Origin: Gammaproteobacteria bacterium
GTDB taxonomy: Bacteria > Pseudomonadota > Gammaproteobacteria > SZUA-21
Reading direction: 5' to 3'
DNA: 57,047 nt
Assembly (NCBI GenBank): GCA_003233345.1
Contig: QILK01000102.1
Coordinates: 1 to 57,047, forward strand
Both the position numbers and the translations under genes were made by a program. Position 1 is the stretch's first letter, and every line of letters begins with the position of its first letter. This document shows, in pieces, positions 48,458-57,047 of the stretch. Below the pieces are notes generated by a model that saw nothing but the letters and a program-made list of their open reading frames with translations, ran no database searches and was not told the origin of the DNA.

Positions 48458-49447
48458 TTAAATAAGGTTATGCTTACGATCATACTTTATTAAAGTATTT
48501 TTGACATTTATTAGTAGCTGTGATATTTCTTGCTCATTGGGAAACCTGTCACCAAAAACCATGTCTTTAAAAGAATCACTGTGTATCGCTTTTATTAAAA
48601 TTGGAACGATATTGTCAAGCTTACGAAATAAAGGCGCATGACTTAAAGGCTTTTCAAGCCAGTTTTTATCCATCTTTCCAGGAATATTTTTCTCTGATCC
48701 AACTACTGCATGGATTAATTCAATAATATCTTGTGAATCCAAATAATTTTTATAAATATCAAAACGCAGTATAAGCGCAATATCATATATGTGCCTAATT
48801 TTATTAGTCAGCACTAGCTCATAAGAAGCGTTGTAACTATGTTTAATCAAACCCATTAATTTTTCAACAAGTGTTCTTTCCACATCTAATACAGAGACCA
48901 AAAACGGATGCAAACTATATTCTTCAATGAGTTTTTCTTGGTTTTTATCAAGTAAATATTCGCCAATGTATGAATTAATAGTTTGTTTTGAATAAGGCGT
49001 TGGTAGCGTAAAAGAATTGACCTCTATTAATATTGTATCCTTAATATCACCATAGTTATTACTGCTTGTTACTTTGGGATAGTCATAAACTGTTTTACGA
49101 AAAACTGATCCTTTTGACTCTAGTTTATGATTTTTATGATAGGTTAAACCTAATGTAACAGTTTTTTCCGTTTTTTTTAAAAGTTTTTTGATCTGATTAC
49201 CGGATTGTTCAATATTTAACACTGCCAAATCGACGTCCTCAGAAAAGCGATTTATTATTTTATGCGCTTTAGACAGAGAGGTTCCGCCCTTAAATACAAT
49301 TTCGTTAGAGATGTCAGATTCGGACAATTGTTTTAATGCCCTGGTAACCCAATAGTCTTTTTCGATATAGACGGCAGGAAGATTTAAATCACTAGCCGTT
49401 TCCCTCAGCAAGGGTTTAAATACATCTATATACTCGTGTAAAATCAT
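48458..49447 (-). CDS. AbiEii-family nucleotidyltransferase toxin (type IV TA)
   Basis: IEKDYWV, VFKGGTSLSK, RFSEDVDL, ERTLVEK, RHIYD. Start 49447 (ATGA overlap with the antitoxin stop) or 49459. Confidence 0.92.
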   Translation of the reverse strand: MILHEYIDVFKPLLRETASDLNLPAVYIEKDYWVTRALKQLSESDISNEIVFKGGTSLSKAHKIINRFSEDVDLAVLNIEQSGNQIKKLLKKTEKTVTLGLTYHKNHKLESKGSVFRKTVYDYPKVTSSNNYGDIKDTILIEVNSFTLPTPYSKQTINSYIGEYLLDKNQEKLIEEYSLHPFLVSVLDVERTLVEKLMGLIKHSYNASYELVLTNKIRHIYDIALILRFDIYKNYLDSQDIIELIHAVVGSEKNIPGKMDKNWLEKPLSHAPLFRKLDNIVPILIKAIHSDSFKDMVFGDRFPNEQEISQLLINVKNTLIKYDRKHNLI

Positions 49448-50172
49448 ACTATATTCCATTTATATTTTTCGCGCCAATCAGCATCACCGATTGCAAGTTT
49501 AAAGGTAGTCAATGGGTTTAATGATTTTTTTAATAGTGACAATATATCTATCTCAATCTTCGACAAGATTAGTCCCAAGACTGCTATTGTTGCTGGATTA
49601 TAGTAGGATGCCGCAATTTTTTGTATTTTAGAGATATCGGATTTACCTAACATATCTATTTCTAACACGATTTGGCTAAGCACCTGCTCACCTGTAGTAT
49701 CGGGGATTTTTTGAAAGTTACGAAGTACATCAAGGTATTGCAGCAATATTACATTTGCTTTATTAATAGGTGCGCGAGATCTTACAAATCTTATCTGAAA
49801 ATCACCAAAATCAAGTTTTGGACGTATGCGTTCCATTGCAATGGTAGTTACCATAGGTACTTGTGTTGTTAATCCTAATTCATTATATAGGCGTGCACCA
49901 GTAATATAGCCAATCTGTTTTGTACCGCGATATATAATCGATTGTAATATCTCATCACTCGATGGATTTAATGTCGGCTGTGTTATGCCCTTTTCTGGTA
50001 TATAGTACTGGCCTTTTGAAAATCGCTTTAGTTTGTTTTCTTTAACCAAACGACTGAGCGTGCGCGAAACCGCCTTTGGTGAGGCTTTCGCAGACACCAG
50101 ATCAAGATACCCAAACAATTTGCCAGGTGCGAGCTGTGCTATTTCGGCTATGACTTTTTTGGCGATACTCAT
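49444..50172 (-). CDS. AbiEi-family (DUF6088-like) wHTH antitoxin
   Basis: N-terminal wHTH (AVSRTLSRLVKE...RFSKGQYYIP), GYITGARLYNELGLTTQVP. ATG at 50172 has a GAGG RBS. Confidence 0.85.
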   Translation of the reverse strand: MSIAKKVIAEIAQLAPGKLFGYLDLVSAKASPKAVSRTLSRLVKENKLKRFSKGQYYIPEKGITQPTLNPSSDEILQSIIYRGTKQIGYITGARLYNELGLTTQVPMVTTIAMERIRPKLDFGDFQIRFVRSRAPINKANVILLQYLDVLRNFQKIPDTTGEQVLSQIVLEIDMLGKSDISKIQKIAASYYNPATIAVLGLILSKIEIDILSLLKKSLNPLTTFKLAIGDADWREKYKWNIV

Positions 50173-50211
50173 TGTGTTACCTCTTTTATATAGGCCAAAG
50201 TATAATACATA

Positions 50212-50559: not shown

Positions 50560-51549
50560 ATGGGGTGGAAAGGAGCGGTTCGCTCAATTGGGGCAGCGGT
50601 TCGCGCTACGGAAAGAGATGCAAAGCGACGCCAACGCGAACTTGACAAACAACAAAAGCAATATGAAAAAATGCAAGCATTGGAACAAGCTGCATACGCA
50701 GTAGAAGTATACGAGAATGATATTGAAGTAATTCAATCCATTCATAAAGAATGCAGTAATCCAATCGACTGGGAAATAGTTGCTAAGTCACAAGAGCCCA
50801 AAAAGCCAAGCAACTTAAAGAACAATGAAAAAGTAGCAAGATCAAAAATGGATAATTACAAGCCTGGCTTTATTGATAAAATTTTTAAGAGAGAAGAAAA
50901 GAAGAGAATCTCACATAGTGAAAATACTGTAAGCGCAATTGAAGAGGATAAAGCCGAGTATAAAAAAAATATACGTAGCTGGGAAAAAAATATTAGTGAC
51001 TGGAAAGAAAGTGTTTTGCTTGCTCAACTTCTTCTTAATGGCGATGAAGATGCTAAAATAAGAGCAATTGAAGAACTGGATCCGTTCTCTGAAATTTCAA
51101 ACTTGGGCTCTAATTTAACAATATCTGTTAACGAAAGTAGTTTAATTGAAGCAACAATTCATATTCATGGAAATGATATTGTTCCAAGCGAAGTTAAAAG
51201 CCTGCTGAAAAGTGGCAAGCTATCTGTAAAAAATATGCCAAATGGAAAGTTTAACGAAATTTATCAAGACTATGTATGTAGTTGTGTATTAAGAGTCGCA
51301 AATGAACTGTTTTCTGCAATTCCAGATAATATGGTTATTGTAACTGCTGTCGATGAATTATTAAGTACTAAAACTGGCCACTTAGAAAAATCCCCAATAT
51401 TATCTGTTTGTGTGTCACGTAGTACATTAGAATCATTTAATATGAACAATATTGACCCATCTGATTCAATGAGTAATTTTATTCATAATATGTCGTTTAA
51501 AAAAACAAAAGGTTTTGAACCCGTGGAATTAGCAAGGCCACCATCATAG
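50560..51549 (+). CDS. Hypothetical coiled-coil protein resembling the non-catalytic part of DUF4236/Mrr-associated proteins
   Basis: AAGGAG RBS; charged N-terminal coiled coil; C-terminal YQDYVCSCVLRVANELF...TGH...ILSV...IDPSD. Confidence 0.6.
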   Translation: MGWKGAVRSIGAAVRATERDAKRRQRELDKQQKQYEKMQALEQAAYAVEVYENDIEVIQSIHKECSNPIDWEIVAKSQEPKKPSNLKNNEKVARSKMDNYKPGFIDKIFKREEKKRISHSENTVSAIEEDKAEYKKNIRSWEKNISDWKESVLLAQLLLNGDEDAKIRAIEELDPFSEISNLGSNLTISVNESSLIEATIHIHGNDIVPSEVKSLLKSGKLSVKNMPNGKFNEIYQDYVCSCVLRVANELFSAIPDNMVIVTAVDELLSTKTGHLEKSPILSVCVSRSTLESFNMNNIDPSDSMSNFIHNMSFKKTKGFEPVELARPPS

Positions 51550-51848
51550 GCTTGATAATGATCTAAATAAAAACAGCTTACTATAAAATTAACGTGGATA
51601 AATACAGTGTTGCTTCACTGCTTTATTTTACCGATTATTAAAAATGCCAAATGTCTGTATATAAACACTGCTGTTACTCCACGTTTACGTGCATGATAGT
51701 CTTAGACACACACAAAAAACATTCAAATTTATGACCCATTTTTGTCTAGAGCATTCACTTTGGACCGTGGAATGATGTTTAGTTTTGCATTTCGATTTCC
51801 AAGTCGATAAGCTTTATTGATGTTCAATTACAAATAGTGGCGCCATCG

Positions 51849-52122
51849 ATGACCCAATCGCGTAGCGAAGCGATCAACCTCGATTTCACTCCTTACTATC
51901 ATTGTATTAGTCGATGTGTACGCAGGCGTTTTTATGTGGCCAGGATCACTGCACTGGTCAGTCCTTTGCGCACCGAAGACAATGGATTGTGGATTTGATC
52001 AAGGAGTTGTCAGATTTCGTATTATTTTTCATGTGGACCGTGAAAGATGCTTAAAGCTGTCGGGTCATGAAGTAATCGAACGTTGGTTTCTTTTCCATAA
52101 AGGCGTCCATTTCCATCGATAG
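51849..52122 (+). pseudogene. REP-associated tyrosine (HUH/Y1, RAYT-type) transposase remnant
   Basis: Three frames join to MTQSRSEAINLDFTPYYHCISRCVRR / AFLCGQDHCTGQSFAHRRQWIVDLIKELSD / FHVDRERCLKLSGHEVIERW. The HUH segment (about AYAVMSNHxH) is deleted and the C-terminus is absent. Confidence 0.85.
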
Positions 52123-52195
52123 TATACGAAGGCTGTTTGTCAGATGTGTACTATTATTGGCTTGCATTGCTAATTATGAACATCAAGTAAGTCTT

Positions 52196-52684
52196 TTAGT
52201 CCCCTTTAAATATTTTTGGAAAATGTTTAAATAAAGCTTCAATAAAAGTAGCGTCCGCTGTTTCTTTAGTTATTTTGAAGTTTCCAATGCGACCATTGAA
52301 TGCTGTGGTGGCAGCGACAATTATCATTGATAGTGCAATTCCAGTAGCAAGAATTTCTCCTACCATTAGGTTTTTATCCTGATAATTATCCAAAGCTTCT
52401 GACAGTGAGGGTGCGAATGCAGAATCTTTAGAAAATCCCATTAGTAGCTCTTTGGCAAGTGGTGCTGATTCAGACTTCGATAAGTGTTTAGCGCGTTCAG
52501 TAGCCGACATTTTAAGAACACTTTCGAACGGCGCTCGGTCTTTGAATTCATCAGGGATACCAGCGAGCATTTGTTCCGGTGTGGTCTCCATACCTTCAAA
52601 TAACTGAGTGGAATAAAATTCAAGTATCCGAATTGACTTCGCATCGCTTAGGTTATTAATTCTATCAGGTAGATTGTCTAACAT
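52196..52684 (-). CDS. Hypothetical protein with a C-terminal hydrophobic helix, co-transcribed with the CHAT protease
   Basis: GGAGG RBS; ATG 22 nt after the CHAT stop; hydrophobic MVGEILATGIALSMIIVAATTAF near the C-terminus. Confidence 0.75.
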   Translation of the reverse strand: MLDNLPDRINNLSDAKSIRILEFYSTQLFEGMETTPEQMLAGIPDEFKDRAPFESVLKMSATERAKHLSKSESAPLAKELLMGFSKDSAFAPSLSEALDNYQDKNLMVGEILATGIALSMIIVAATTAFNGRIGNFKITKETADATFIEALFKHFPKIFKGD

Positions 52685-52706
52685 GACTACTTCCTCCATT
52701 TTATTT

Positions 52707-55094
52707 TCAGCGCCAATCACCAGCTAAGCTGAAGGGTGCCCAATTGTAAACTAATTTATTATCAAAAGCTTTGCTGTTATCCAGCTGACTCAAAATGACG
52801 TTTCGCCATGCTTGTGCTCGGCTTAGACCGTTCACAAGCCATTCCTCGTAAAAGCGAATACAGAAATCTGCAGAGCTTTCAACAGGAATATTCCAGTGAG
52901 TGGAGAGTACACTGCTAGCGCCTGCAATTAGCAAACTCCACTCAAGCCCCAGCGCGTCGCCACCTATGCCTTCTTCAGAAAGCCCCGACACACAGGCTTG
53001 CAGGGATACGTGCGAGTGATCCAGATTTAACTGGCTATCACGCTCGATAATACATTTCGGTGACAGCAGTCCACACTGTTGTGCGTCTTGCGGTAAATGT
53101 CCATCCTTGCTAATAACTAGCCCTGCTCCCCGAAATGGTTCGATAGCTTCTTCCGGTTTAGGGAAATAACCATGGGTCGCGAAATGGATTACTGCATGAG
53201 TGAGGTCCTGCGACAATAACGCTTTCAAATCTGCTTTCTCGTCATCGAGCCTATATCCTGGTATTGGCCCACTGTCGAGCCAATCTGGCGCTCGCCCCAA
53301 TTCACTAACCTTGTCGTGATCATTTTCAGCCTCACTCGCTAGCGGAACCTTCATAGAGACGTAATGCGTCGGGTGTGAGACAGGTTGCTGTGCGAAGTAG
53401 TGTAGCAGTGACGCTGAATGGGTTCGTGATAATGAAACTAGCTTAACGAGGGGGGCGCCATGAAAATCCACATAGTGTAATGGCACTAAATGTAGTAGTC
53501 CATCGGGTGAATAGCATACGTGATCGCCCTCTCGCAGTGCACCATCGCTTACTAGTTCCTCCAGCCAATTGACGAGTGGACTCAATTGTTGTGCTACATC
53601 GTTGGGCGAAGCAAAGAAGCCCCGAGTCTTCTTACCCCAATTAGAGGGGTCGATATCATTTCTGAGTTCTTCAATGAGTCTGCTACCAATGGGTAGACGG
53701 GCCGAGTATAATTCACCTTTTTTTGTTACGCAGACTCCGTAACTAACATCTTCATCCATCAGAAATGTAATATAGTGACTATTAAGCTTTGTCATAAGCT
53801 TAGGTAACCAGTTCGCGATTATCTTTGGCGCATTTAACAAACCTTCTCGATGTGCCTCAATTGCAAGTAAATCAGTCAGTGCCCGGCCTTTCGCTTCCTC
53901 GATCACGGACAATAGCTCAGCACTATCGCCGCGATCAATTAAACGAGGGCACAACTCAACATAAAGATGGGGATATTGTTTAGCGATACCAGCGCGTTTT
54001 AACGGGTCTTGAATTAATTCTCGACTCTTGCTTATTAAGGGCCTGATGGTTTGTAAGATATCGAGCGATGCGTCGTATCGTTCCATGCGTTTATAACATA
54101 TATGGAGCGGCCATAATGTATCGGCGGCTGTATTCTCTAGACCGGTATCAATAGCTTCCTGTCGCGTAGCCTCAAGTGATTCTCTTACTTGGTCGAGATT
54201 GGTAGGATCGTAACCGCGCTGGGGGTCAGCAAGCACAGCCGATGCTTTCTGAATAGCAACATTGAGACTAAATTGATTTCCCGAGCCACCTGCCATATTC
54301 TCCATGAATGCACCTAGTGTCTGATACATGTTGCTATCTTTTGCGATAGAATCACTCTTGGATAGGACTTCAGATTGTTCATCGACCTGCGCCCCTAACG
54401 TTTTAAATATATTGGTAAACTCGGGTGATAGCGAAGATAAACCCTGGAGTGCCGACTTAAGTGTTTGCTGTCGCTGATCTGCCGCCTGTTCTTCGACACT
54501 GCGTTCATCCTTGCGTTCTGTAGCTGAAACTAAGCGAGATTGTATGCGCTGCTCAAGAAAAGAGAACGAGGGATGATTTGCGTTGCCCGCAGCAGCCTCA
54601 GCATTTAATTTCTCATTCGCCTCCTCTAAACGACCTTGCGTTATTAACGCTTCAATTAGCGCAATCCGCAAGTCCACTAAGTGATGCTCTGCGCCTTCGT
54701 GCGCATTTAACCACGTGATGTTATTTTCCAGCACAGTGACTTGTTCTTTGTGATTATCCATCCGATCATAGGCACGGTGGGCATCCATAGCAAACTGCCC
54801 GACTCCGAATACAAACGTATTAGCCGTACCTGGACCATATTGTTTGTAACAGTGTTTACAAAAACTAATTCCTACAGTGGCTAGCATAGCAGCAGTCTTT
54901 GGGTTACCACCCACTGAATGATCCTGGGATACTGATCGAAGTGCGTACACGCGCGAATCCAATGCTGAGCCCTGAGCGAGCGAAGCCGACACAGATTGAG
55001 AACTAGAATGCGGCAAACTAGATATTAATGTTGCCAATTGCGTTGACTCTGCATCTAATGCGGCACTCAACCATTCGTCATTATTAATGTCCAT
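52707..55094 (-). CDS. TPR-like helical + CHAT (caspase-like) domain protease
   Basis: AAGGAGG RBS; IEEAKGRALTDLL, SPDGLLHLVP, IHFATHG (His641), SLQAC (Cys701), GASSVLSTHW, WAPFSLAG. Confidence 0.92.
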   Translation of the reverse strand: MDINNDEWLSAALDAESTQLATLISSLPHSSSQSVSASLAQGSALDSRVYALRSVSQDHSVGGNPKTAAMLATVGISFCKHCYKQYGPGTANTFVFGVGQFAMDAHRAYDRMDNHKEQVTVLENNITWLNAHEGAEHHLVDLRIALIEALITQGRLEEANEKLNAEAAAGNANHPSFSFLEQRIQSRLVSATERKDERSVEEQAADQRQQTLKSALQGLSSLSPEFTNIFKTLGAQVDEQSEVLSKSDSIAKDSNMYQTLGAFMENMAGGSGNQFSLNVAIQKASAVLADPQRGYDPTNLDQVRESLEATRQEAIDTGLENTAADTLWPLHICYKRMERYDASLDILQTIRPLISKSRELIQDPLKRAGIAKQYPHLYVELCPRLIDRGDSAELLSVIEEAKGRALTDLLAIEAHREGLLNAPKIIANWLPKLMTKLNSHYITFLMDEDVSYGVCVTKKGELYSARLPIGSRLIEELRNDIDPSNWGKKTRGFFASPNDVAQQLSPLVNWLEELVSDGALREGDHVCYSPDGLLHLVPLHYVDFHGAPLVKLVSLSRTHSASLLHYFAQQPVSHPTHYVSMKVPLASEAENDHDKVSELGRAPDWLDSGPIPGYRLDDEKADLKALLSQDLTHAVIHFATHGYFPKPEEAIEPFRGAGLVISKDGHLPQDAQQCGLLSPKCIIERDSQLNLDHSHVSLQACVSGLSEEGIGGDALGLEWSLLIAGASSVLSTHWNIPVESSADFCIRFYEEWLVNGLSRAQAWRNVILSQLDNSKAFDNKLVYNWAPFSLAGDWR

Positions 55095-56382: not shown

Positions 56383-56714
56383 TTTTTCTCCCATATTTAT
56401 CAATGGTCAATTTCAGTGTATTATCCAAACCAAGAACTAGAAAATCTCCGTCGTACCTACAACTTAAGCATTATATAGAAATAACAATCCCACCGAATAA
56501 TACATTCCCTTCTGCAAGACACCGTGCCCAAGTATAAATAGAATATCCCCAATTGTCGCTCATTAATGATAGTATCTAACATATATACGGATGCCTTTGA
56601 TCATGCGATGCCATAAAATGGATTCGATTAGTGTCGCTTCAACTTACCTGCCTGATTCCCATGCTCCTGCGTGGGAACCATTATGCACAGGGAAACTTAA
56701 AATGGATTTATTTT

Positions 56715-57047
56715 ACCGCCTGGCGTGATGGTACTACGCATGTTTTCTTCGAGCCTTTGGACTTTATCGCCCGGCTTGCAGCCCTGGTGCCAAAACCCAG
56801 AGTGAACCTGACCCGGTTCCAGGGTGTTTTTGCTCCCAACAGCAAACATCGCGCGTTGGTGACACCCGCCAAGCGGGGAAAAAAGTTAAAGAAGCTGATG
56901 AACCACAAGACCAACCGCCAACAGAACGCAGGGCATCAATGAGCTTTAAGTGCAGTGCCTTAAACGAGTCTTTAATATCGACATCGAGACATGTGGAAAA
57001 TGTGGCGGTCCAGTCAAGGTCATCGCCTGCATCGAAGACCCGGTGGT
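56715..57047 (+). mobile_element. IS91/ISCR-family rolling-circle transposase remnant (5'-truncated, frameshifted, runs off the window)
   Basis: WRDGTTHVFFEPLDFIARLAALVPKPRVNLTRFQGVFAPN, then frameshifted PTERRASM and LKRVFNIDIETCGKCGGPVKVIACIEDPV. Confidence 0.92.

Follow-up and report, generated by a model that had tools for sequence, protein, structure and literature searches.

The window analyzed in this study is contig QILK01000102.1 of a gammaproteobacterium (assembly GCA_003233345.1), a stretch of 57,047 nucleotides. Between positions 52196 and 55094 its minus strand contains two intact and closely spaced open reading frames (ORFs), the first encoding a TPR-CHAT caspase-like protease of 795 aa and the second a partner protein of 162 aa that belongs to an undescribed family. 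We propose that this pair is a self-contained two-gene protease-effector module, in which the partner would be a protease-gated latent effector that damages the membrane. We favor this reading tentatively, at somewhat less than an even chance. What is new here is the putative effector/receiver family and its predicted fold; the logic of a protease-gated effector is known. A preliminary description of this DNA, made from the sequence alone, had reported the two ORFs, their coordinates and a catalytic dyad, and these sequence-level observations were borne out. All coordinates are positions in the window, and the pair comprises the following features.

52707-55094, minus strand: TPR-CHAT caspase-like protease gene, 795 aa plus stop codon (ORF, Pfam CHAT match).
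53784-55094, minus strand: N-terminal all-helical TPR-like region, aa 1-437, the presumed sensor or regulatory arm (AlphaFold2, Foldseek).
52716-53537, minus strand: CHAT protease domain, aa 520-793 (Pfam PF12770).
53172-53174, minus strand: codon of the catalytic His641 (column invariant in alignments A3 and A4).
52992-52994, minus strand: codon of the catalytic Cys701 (column invariant in the same two alignments).
52685-52706, minus strand: intergenic spacer of 22 nt with GGAGG at 52697-52693, 8 nt 5' of the partner ATG.
52196-52684, minus strand: partner gene, 162 aa plus stop codon, of an undescribed family (116 family representatives, no model in the HMM libraries).
52385-52684, minus strand: N-terminal acidic helical domain of the partner, aa 1-100, a proposed autoinhibitory prodomain (helices over aa 2-100, isoelectric point).
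52373-52384, minus strand: linker motif Y101-Q-D103-K, a candidate cleavage region (family consensus [YFW]-[RK]-D-[DE]).
52298-52369, minus strand: hydrophobic, small-residue-rich segment, aa 106-129, LMVGEILATGIALSMIIVAATTAF (Kyte-Doolittle, conservation).
52265-52300, minus strand: predicted beta-hairpin, aa 129-140, with an alternating beta-amphipathic pattern (strands 129-133 and 136-140).
52202-52252, minus strand: predicted amphipathic tail helices, aa 145-161, in a net-basic C-terminal tail (helices 145-152 and 155-159).

The CHAT domain of the protease matches Pfam PF12770 with 94.4 bits (cut-off 24, E 1.1e-26). The dyad consists of His641, located in the motif FATHGYF, and Cys701, located in SLQACVSG; both positions had been called correctly, and both residues are invariant in 11-12 orthologues that share 20-53% identity with the window protein. 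Full-length CHAT orthologues from 10 loci have a size between 803 and 829 aa. By profile and conserved dyad, the window protein is assigned to the CHAT/caspase-fold peptidases (clan CD) and is predicted to be proteolytic. The preliminary description had also placed about 450 aa of helical repeats in front of the dyad. An AlphaFold2 model built on an 11-sequence alignment is only moderately confident (predicted local distance difference test score, pLDDT, 77.6; predicted template modeling score, pTM, 0.68) and places approximately 22 helices in aa 1-437, ahead of a small element of three strands and the alpha/beta CHAT fold. The pLDDT of the helical arm is mostly 75-94, with a weak part at aa 181-270. 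The best Foldseek match in the PDB over the whole chain is TPR-CHAT/Csx29 of Craspase (8d9f_A, E 5.6e-11; also 8eey_B and 7y84_C), and the alignments to these chains span 808-863 columns. Further matches are DdvA (8rot_A, E 5e-10), separases (E 7e-8 to 3e-5) and the plain TPR proteins LGN and OGT (E ~1e-3). No Pfam TPR model matches the window protease significantly and the term ‘TPR-like’ therefore rests on fold, not on sequence, so that the helical part of the earlier claim stands and its repeat class is seen in the predicted structure only. The TPR-CHAT architecture is thus supported at the level of the modeled fold. A PDB sequence search with the CHAT protein matched no chain, and on inspection alone no N-terminal signal peptide or hydrophobic stretch is obvious in the window protease.

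The partner ATG is located at 52684, 22 nt past the CHAT stop codon. The alignment of homologue N-termini identifies this Met as the start, rather than an overlapping upstream GTG, and the ribosome-binding site of its own that had been attributed to the gene is present as the GGAGG in the spacer. No terminator-like site was found between the two genes, and promoter and terminator scans around the pair gave scores no better than those of shuffled sequence.

A check set beforehand was whether homologues of the partner are linked to CHAT genes. In all 21 readable contexts, the window included, the gene directly 5' of the partner homologue and co-oriented with it encodes a CHAT protein of this family. 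The two genes are separated by 4-35 nt or overlap, and three kinds of natural fusion add to this linkage. Among the loci L001-L011, the upstream CHAT gene is present on the same strand in 10 out of 10 informative cases, namely Halomonas jincaotanensis (L001) and nine metagenome contigs; a tenth contig is too short. A distant clade, with a partner identity of 24-29% and including Ilyomonas limi, has the same arrangement in seven contexts (L012-L019 and one JGI contig). It recurs before fused forms of the partner (L020, L021/L022 and L023), where the upstream products end in ...SL(A/S/G)GDWR. The sequenced hosts belong to the Gammaproteobacteria, Bacteroidota and Cyanobacteria, and one CHAT orthologue clusters at 90% identity at least with a protein of a Xenococcaceae cyanobacterium. 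An all-against-all ORF comparison of seven sources (L001, L002, L006, L008, L009, L011 and the window) left only the CHAT protein and the partner in common; no third conserved gene, sigma factor or transcription factor accompanies the pair in this comparison. The pairwise identities of CHAT and partner co-vary with r 0.94 over 55 locus pairs, which are not independent of each other. From this strict linkage, the restriction to two shared genes and the co-variation, we conclude that the pair is a co-inherited two-gene module.

A HMMER search through all 1.84 billion cluster representatives (E up to 1e-3) yielded 116 relatives of the partner (clusters at 50% identity), nearly all of them 155-175 aa long. 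The conservation counts given here refer to a 69-sequence partner alignment; a metagenome pattern scan used a closer 9-sequence subset because the full alignment is too diverse. Even at E up to 5, no relevant Pfam or NCBIfam model matched the 69 aligned members, and the window partner has no match in PADLOC or PHROGs. Together with the lack of a fold match described below, this agrees with the earlier statement that the partner resembles no effector that can be named.

The acidic helical body, C-terminal hydrophobic helix and amphipathic tail that had been ascribed to the partner are all recovered. The whole partner has an isoelectric point (pI) of 5.1, and aa 1-105 have one of 4.7. The strongest polar conservation of the family is found in the linker, with an aromatic residue at position 101 in 64 of 69 sequences, R/K at 102 in 45, D at 103 in 53 and D/E at 104 in 46. 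The hydrophobic segment that follows reaches a Kyte-Doolittle 19-mer maximum of 2.17, which is transmembrane-grade, and has the core consensus ILAxGxAxSMxxxAATT with conserved residues (G115 in 63/69, S119 in 52/69 and T126 in 55/69). It is flanked by a charge of -3 before and +2 after. The hairpin has a beta hydrophobic moment of 0.4-0.54 and retains K140 in 55 of 68 sequences, while the tail has a helical hydrophobic moment of 0.5-0.73 and aa 130-162 carry a net charge of +2. The piece beyond D103 is 59 aa long, or ~6.4 kDa.

AlphaFold2, given the 69-sequence alignment, predicts the partner as a single domain with high confidence (pLDDT 92.6, pTM 0.88). In this model, helices over aa 2-100 are followed by a loop, a helix (114-125), the hairpin (129-140) and two short terminal helices. 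The block of aa 101-110, with a pLDDT of 80, is the lowest apart from the C-terminal end. A Foldseek comparison yielded no similar structure in the PDB (best E 1.4, TM-score <0.25) and no fold match among predicted viral structures, and the fold of the partner is predicted to be new. The hydrophobic stretch had initially been regarded as a standing membrane anchor. The model shows it as a helix of 12 residues that forms part of a single, confidently placed domain, and the flanking charges oppose an N-in single-pass topology; the segment is thus probably not a constitutive anchor, and we read it as masked in a soluble latent form.

The closest parallel to the pair is the EACC1-caspase system. 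The small protein EACC1 has one conserved hydrophobic helix, which carries a small-residue patch. It occurs in some cases as a fusion to EAD1 or EAD2, and its gene lies beside that of a caspase-domain protein, an arrangement described as ‘System 4’ (PMC7159879). The caspase-like neighbor cleaves EACC1, and modeling of the complex with AlphaFold3 puts the putative cut at Asp49; toxicity in cells is confined to the 7.1-kDa C-terminal fragment, liposomes are permeabilized only by EACC1 that has been cut by its neighbor protease, and the N-terminal part was proposed to be autoinhibitory (Evans et al., bioRxiv 10.1101/2025.11.14.688446). The pair of the window likewise joins a small non-enzymatic protein and a caspase-fold protease in a two-gene unit, and its partner shares with EACC1 one conserved small-residue hydrophobic helix, beta-strands nearby and an occasional EAD1 fusion. 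The proposed logic would also be alike, with an N-terminal part masking a toxic C-terminal fragment of ~6-7 kDa that is freed at a predicted Asp site.

There are clear differences as well. The partner gene is located 3' of the protease gene in all 21 contexts, whereas the EACC1 gene is located 5'. The CHAT domain is C-terminal behind a constant TPR-like arm, whereas the caspase domain of the EACC1 systems is N-terminal before variable sensor domains. With 162 aa, the partner is longer than EACC1 (about 115 aa) and its N-domain is all-alpha instead of being part of a beta-sheet. None of the 69 members matched any relevant model in the Pfam scan, a result that bears on EACC1 only if its model is in the copy used; EAD1 and EAD11, which come from the same Pfam batch, were detected. 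We take it that Pfam includes an EACC1 model. The pair would work in the manner of the EACC1-caspase and gasdermin-protease systems, yet the profile and fold searches place it in neither of them. The partner also matched no profile library or fold search that was run, libraries that are not confirmed to represent the ten protease-associated effector families surveyed by Evans et al. (bioRxiv 10.1101/2025.11.14.688446).

The layout shared with EACC1, i.e., an N-terminal domain, an Asp-containing loop and a small-residue helix toward the C-terminus, leads us to propose by analogy a cut near Y101-Q-D103-K and an attack on the membrane. The general idea of a protease-gated small effector, already put forward in the preliminary description, has a tested precedent in EACC1 (bioRxiv 10.1101/2025.11.14.688446); for the present pair it stands as a proposal. 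The 795-aa protein would be cytoplasmic, with the TPR-like arm as the presumed trigger-binding or autoinhibitory part of the CHAT protease; that this arm senses the trigger is purely conjectural. The 162-aa partner would be its dedicated substrate and a soluble latent effector. Its acidic N-domain (aa 1-100), by analogy an autoinhibitory prodomain, would pack round and mask the ~6.4 kDa C-terminal module, which is composed of the small-residue hydrophobic helix, the amphipathic beta-hairpin and the amphipathic tail in its net-basic stretch. Once triggered, the TPR-CHAT protease would cut in or near the exposed linker, and the freed C-terminal module would insert in the inner membrane, oligomerize, permeabilize it and halt the cell, most plausibly as abortive infection. 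The cleavage and its site, the masking by the N-domain, the membrane action, the trigger and the role in defense are what we infer here; the domain identities, the dyad, the linkage and co-divergence, the fusions, the confident model of a novel fold and the conserved linker are what the analysis shows.

Several natural fusions join the partner domain to other domains. P0086 is a stop-loss read-through in which CHAT is joined to the partner via 7 residues. P0021 (357 aa) and P0109 (837 aa) both start with the partner domain and continue into a second CHAT domain, and each is encoded directly 3' of a TPR-CHAT gene of the same family. P0021 combines the partner domain with a short CHAT domain and is located directly downstream of a 1206-aa CHAT protein with a weak TPR_19 match and two CHAT stretches (L021, 608-5326, and L022). 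In P0109 the partner domain is followed by about 450 aa and the second CHAT. Its locus (L023, 1-4065; JGI Ga0683370_0007538) encodes a TPR-CHAT C-terminus (...SLSGDWR), P0109 and then a 477-aa LCAT/PGAP1-like alpha/beta hydrolase. By its gene order, this locus looks like a protease cascade with a lipase-like effector at the end. IS66, DruA and a resolvase further on indicate an island context. P0029 and P0069 consist of the partner and EAD11, and P0035, located 3' of a gene whose product ends in ...SLGGDWR, of the partner and EAD1. EADs are adaptor domains that define the conflict systems of Kaur, Burroughs, Iyer and Aravind (PMC7159879, PMC8195603). In P0104, a single metagenomic sequence of 233 aa, a trypsin-like fragment is joined to the C-terminal half of the domain alone; this half begins at the A77-R78 helix and takes in the hydrophobic helix and the hairpin. 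The fusion hints that the C-terminal half may be an autonomous module that can be used with another protease class. We conclude from these fusions that the partner domain acts as a constant receiver for this CHAT clade, with extra outputs attached after it; the second CHAT domains together with a lipase-like hydrolase or EAD1/EAD11 outputs point to possible protease cascades. Kinship of the partner domain with the N-terminus of HetF, hinted at by equal offsets in the P0021 match, was rejected, as none of the 69 members matches the HetF model.

The domain order of P0021 and P0109 is also reminiscent of EACC2-caspase proteins (PMC8195603), in which a constant alpha+beta domain directly precedes the caspase domain. 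Unlike these fusions, EACC2 proteins carry variable C-terminal sensors and are linked to TRADD-N or ECF (extracytoplasmic function) sigma factor genes; the comparison is based on published descriptions, and the partner domain may yet be identical to EACC2.

If the proposed module is real, it adds a new effector family and a new fold to the protease-gated death effectors, which have recently emerged as a dominant logic of bacterial immunity, parallel to caspase/gasdermin signaling in animals. The module is compact and spans several phyla, and as a minimal two-gene, CRISPR-free relative of Craspase it would be a tractable system in which to study the gating of a CHAT protease by its TPR arm. From the conserved [YFW]-[RK]-D-[DE] linker a concrete cleavage site is predicted, and the natural fusions hint at multi-step bacterial protease cascades. 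A wider reading is possible, although we place it on the unlikely side. Here, the partner would be an unnamed ‘constant component’ domain with a new fold, and protease-gated membrane killing would have been solved independently a third time, in addition to gasdermin and EACC1. The domain would be the dedicated receiver of a standalone, CRISPR-free clade of Craspase-like TPR-CHAT proteases. In the derived loci L023 and L021 it would connect this protease to a second CHAT and a lipase-like hydrolase, as a bacterial caspase cascade that runs via one recognition module.

Two other protease-gated systems were compared with the pair. Like a bacterial gasdermin, the partner would be a protease-gated membrane effector that is encoded beside the gene of its protease and has an autoinhibitory segment cut off. 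It is, however, about 100 aa shorter than a gasdermin and mostly helical; the inhibitory peptide of bacterial gasdermins is C-terminal, whereas that of the partner would be N-terminal. None of the 69 members matched gasdermin in Pfam, and the Foldseek search of the PDB mentioned above returned none; we assume that gasdermins are covered by a Pfam model and that bacterial ones are represented in the PDB. Craspase (type III-E CRISPR) shares with the pair a TPR arm joined to CHAT and the presumed cleavage of a dedicated neighboring protein, as Csx29 cleaves Csx30. Neither Cas7-11/gRAMP, a CRISPR array nor Csx30/Csx31/RpoE was found by the pair in 20 loci, there are no spaced direct repeats in the window, and the partner has no fold match to Csx30-containing PDB entries. 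As no third gene is conserved and CRISPR-like repeats are missing, the pair is not a type III-E component, and activation here cannot be RNA-guided. DdvA of Myxococcus, a bacterial TPR-CHAT protein and anti-sigma factor, is tied to the control of defense loci (PMC11506125; 8rot_A), but DdvA is membrane-spanning and works with an ECF sigma factor, whereas the loci of the pair show no linked sigma factor gene.

The partner might instead be a securin-like inhibitor or chaperone, which we consider unlikely. It would then lie as a pseudosubstrate along the helical arm and block CHAT until a trigger displaces or degrades it, and the freed protease would itself be the effector on host or phage proteins, in a toxin-antitoxin-like manner. 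The whole-protein fold of the protease resembles separase, which is held by securin and similarly combines a helical-repeat arm, a caspase-fold protease and a small acidic partner; the partner described here is small, acidic and strictly co-inherited with its protease. The cis fusions to CHAT (P0021, P0109 and P0086) would suit a prodomain, and defense by a caspase-like protease that has no dedicated effector has been reported (Evans et al., bioRxiv 10.1101/2025.11.14.688446). Separase and securin are, however, eukaryotic and have no sequence relationship to the pair, and securin is inhibitory and largely disordered whereas the partner is confidently folded in the model. An inhibitor also leaves unexplained the conserved transmembrane-grade helix, the beta-hairpin and the amphipathic tail, as well as the EAD fusions and the attachment of a trypsin fragment to the C-terminal half only.

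An even smaller probability is given to the partner as a tail-anchored inner-membrane anchor or sensor that recruits the protease or reports membrane perturbation. Kaur et al. originally read EACC1 as such an anchor or sensor (PMC7159879), and aa 106-129 both score as a transmembrane segment (Kyte-Doolittle 2.17) and conserve a small-residue pattern as described for EACC1 (PMC7159879). This reading is at odds with the short helix in a single domain (pTM 0.88), with the lack of a signal peptide in the partner and with the net negative charge before and net positive charge after the segment, which oppose an N-in/C-out topology. In addition, EACC1 is monomeric, was purified for assays in vitro and makes no membrane pores until it is cleaved (Evans et al., bioRxiv 10.1101/2025.11.14.688446).

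The following points weigh against the protease-gated membrane effector that we favor. Known CHAT proteases differ in the residue (P1) after which they cut. The burial of the hydrophobic helix is deduced from the pTM and the helix length only. The searches run did not relate the partner, by sequence or by fold, to EACC1, gasdermin, Csx30 or any pore-former. PADLOC-DB v2 contains no match for the pair and none that is relevant for 11 CHAT orthologues. No homologue of the partner turned up in plasmids or phages by tblastn. Finally, the Bacteroidota loci are flanked by housekeeping genes (nitrate reductase, PEMT, efflux). Bacteroidota-like contigs from different samples (L013-L015 and L018) keep the same neighbors, i.e., a PEMT-like methyltransferase, DUF1003, cytochrome c and a NarG-like molybdopterin oxidoreductase, and the Bacteroidota-like partner occurs on about 45 contigs. 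These constant neighbors and the number of contigs are consistent with a stable chromosomal location outside islands in Bacteroidota. The argument from a defense island, made in the preliminary description, thus does not generalize, because the pairs of Bacteroidota sit among housekeeping genes.

The same housekeeping flanks and stable location, the lack of plasmid and phage copies, the recruitment of other proteins that the EAD fusions imply and the stress-response roles that Evans et al. raise for EACC1-DnaK fusions (bioRxiv 10.1101/2025.11.14.688446) would fit a regulatory substrate or adaptor in a non-defense pathway, whose cleavage releases or recruits a factor (Csx30- or HetF-type) and controls a stress or differentiation response, but we regard this as the least probable explanation and a very unlikely one, since the pair conserves no sigma factor, transcription factor or third gene, no cargo is attached to the 162-aa partner where it stands alone, EAD domains by definition mark conflict systems (PMC7159879, PMC8195603), and the window and L023 show island contexts.

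In the window, the pair is located beside AbiE genes and insertion sequence (IS) fragments, in an island downstream of the core genes eno, ispD and ispF and an MCP gene. Of the AbiE and IS island first described, the AbiE genes and one transposase fragment are confirmed. AbiEii and AbiEi adjoin each other at 48458-50175 (PADLOC PDLC02292, E 1.5e-82, and PDLC02226, E 1.6e-43), with AbiEii also matched in Pfam (E 3.8e-30). At the contig end, the C-terminal part of a Y2 (IS91-type) transposase is left as a fragment at 56631-56942 (plus strand; E 1e-6). The short ORFs at 51837-52122 (plus strand) look like transposase remnants by eye and have no Pfam match.

An island-like setting is also seen around the orthologous pair of Halomonas jincaotanensis (L001, 3349-13203). 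IS3-family transposase fragments and a DUF1232 protein are located upstream, and a 468-aa ORF with a KAP-NTPase-like P-loop (GKWGTGKST; KAP assigned by eye only) is located downstream. L001 is thus another variable-island setting.

Between AbiEi and the partner gene, the window contains an ORF of 329 aa (50560-51549, plus strand) that matches phrog_38135, a phage protein family with no function assigned, over aa 97-323 (E 1.4e-41); it has no significant Pfam, NCBIfam or PADLOC match. Judged by this match, it may be an extra island cargo gene or a prophage remnant. The GC content of the flanks is 0.35-0.37, compared with ~0.44 for the core genes. The pair itself has a GC content of 0.41-0.47 (52001-55000), as opposed to 0.35-0.37 in the adjacent island DNA (48-52 kb and 55-57 kb), which suggests that the pair and its neighbors were acquired separately.

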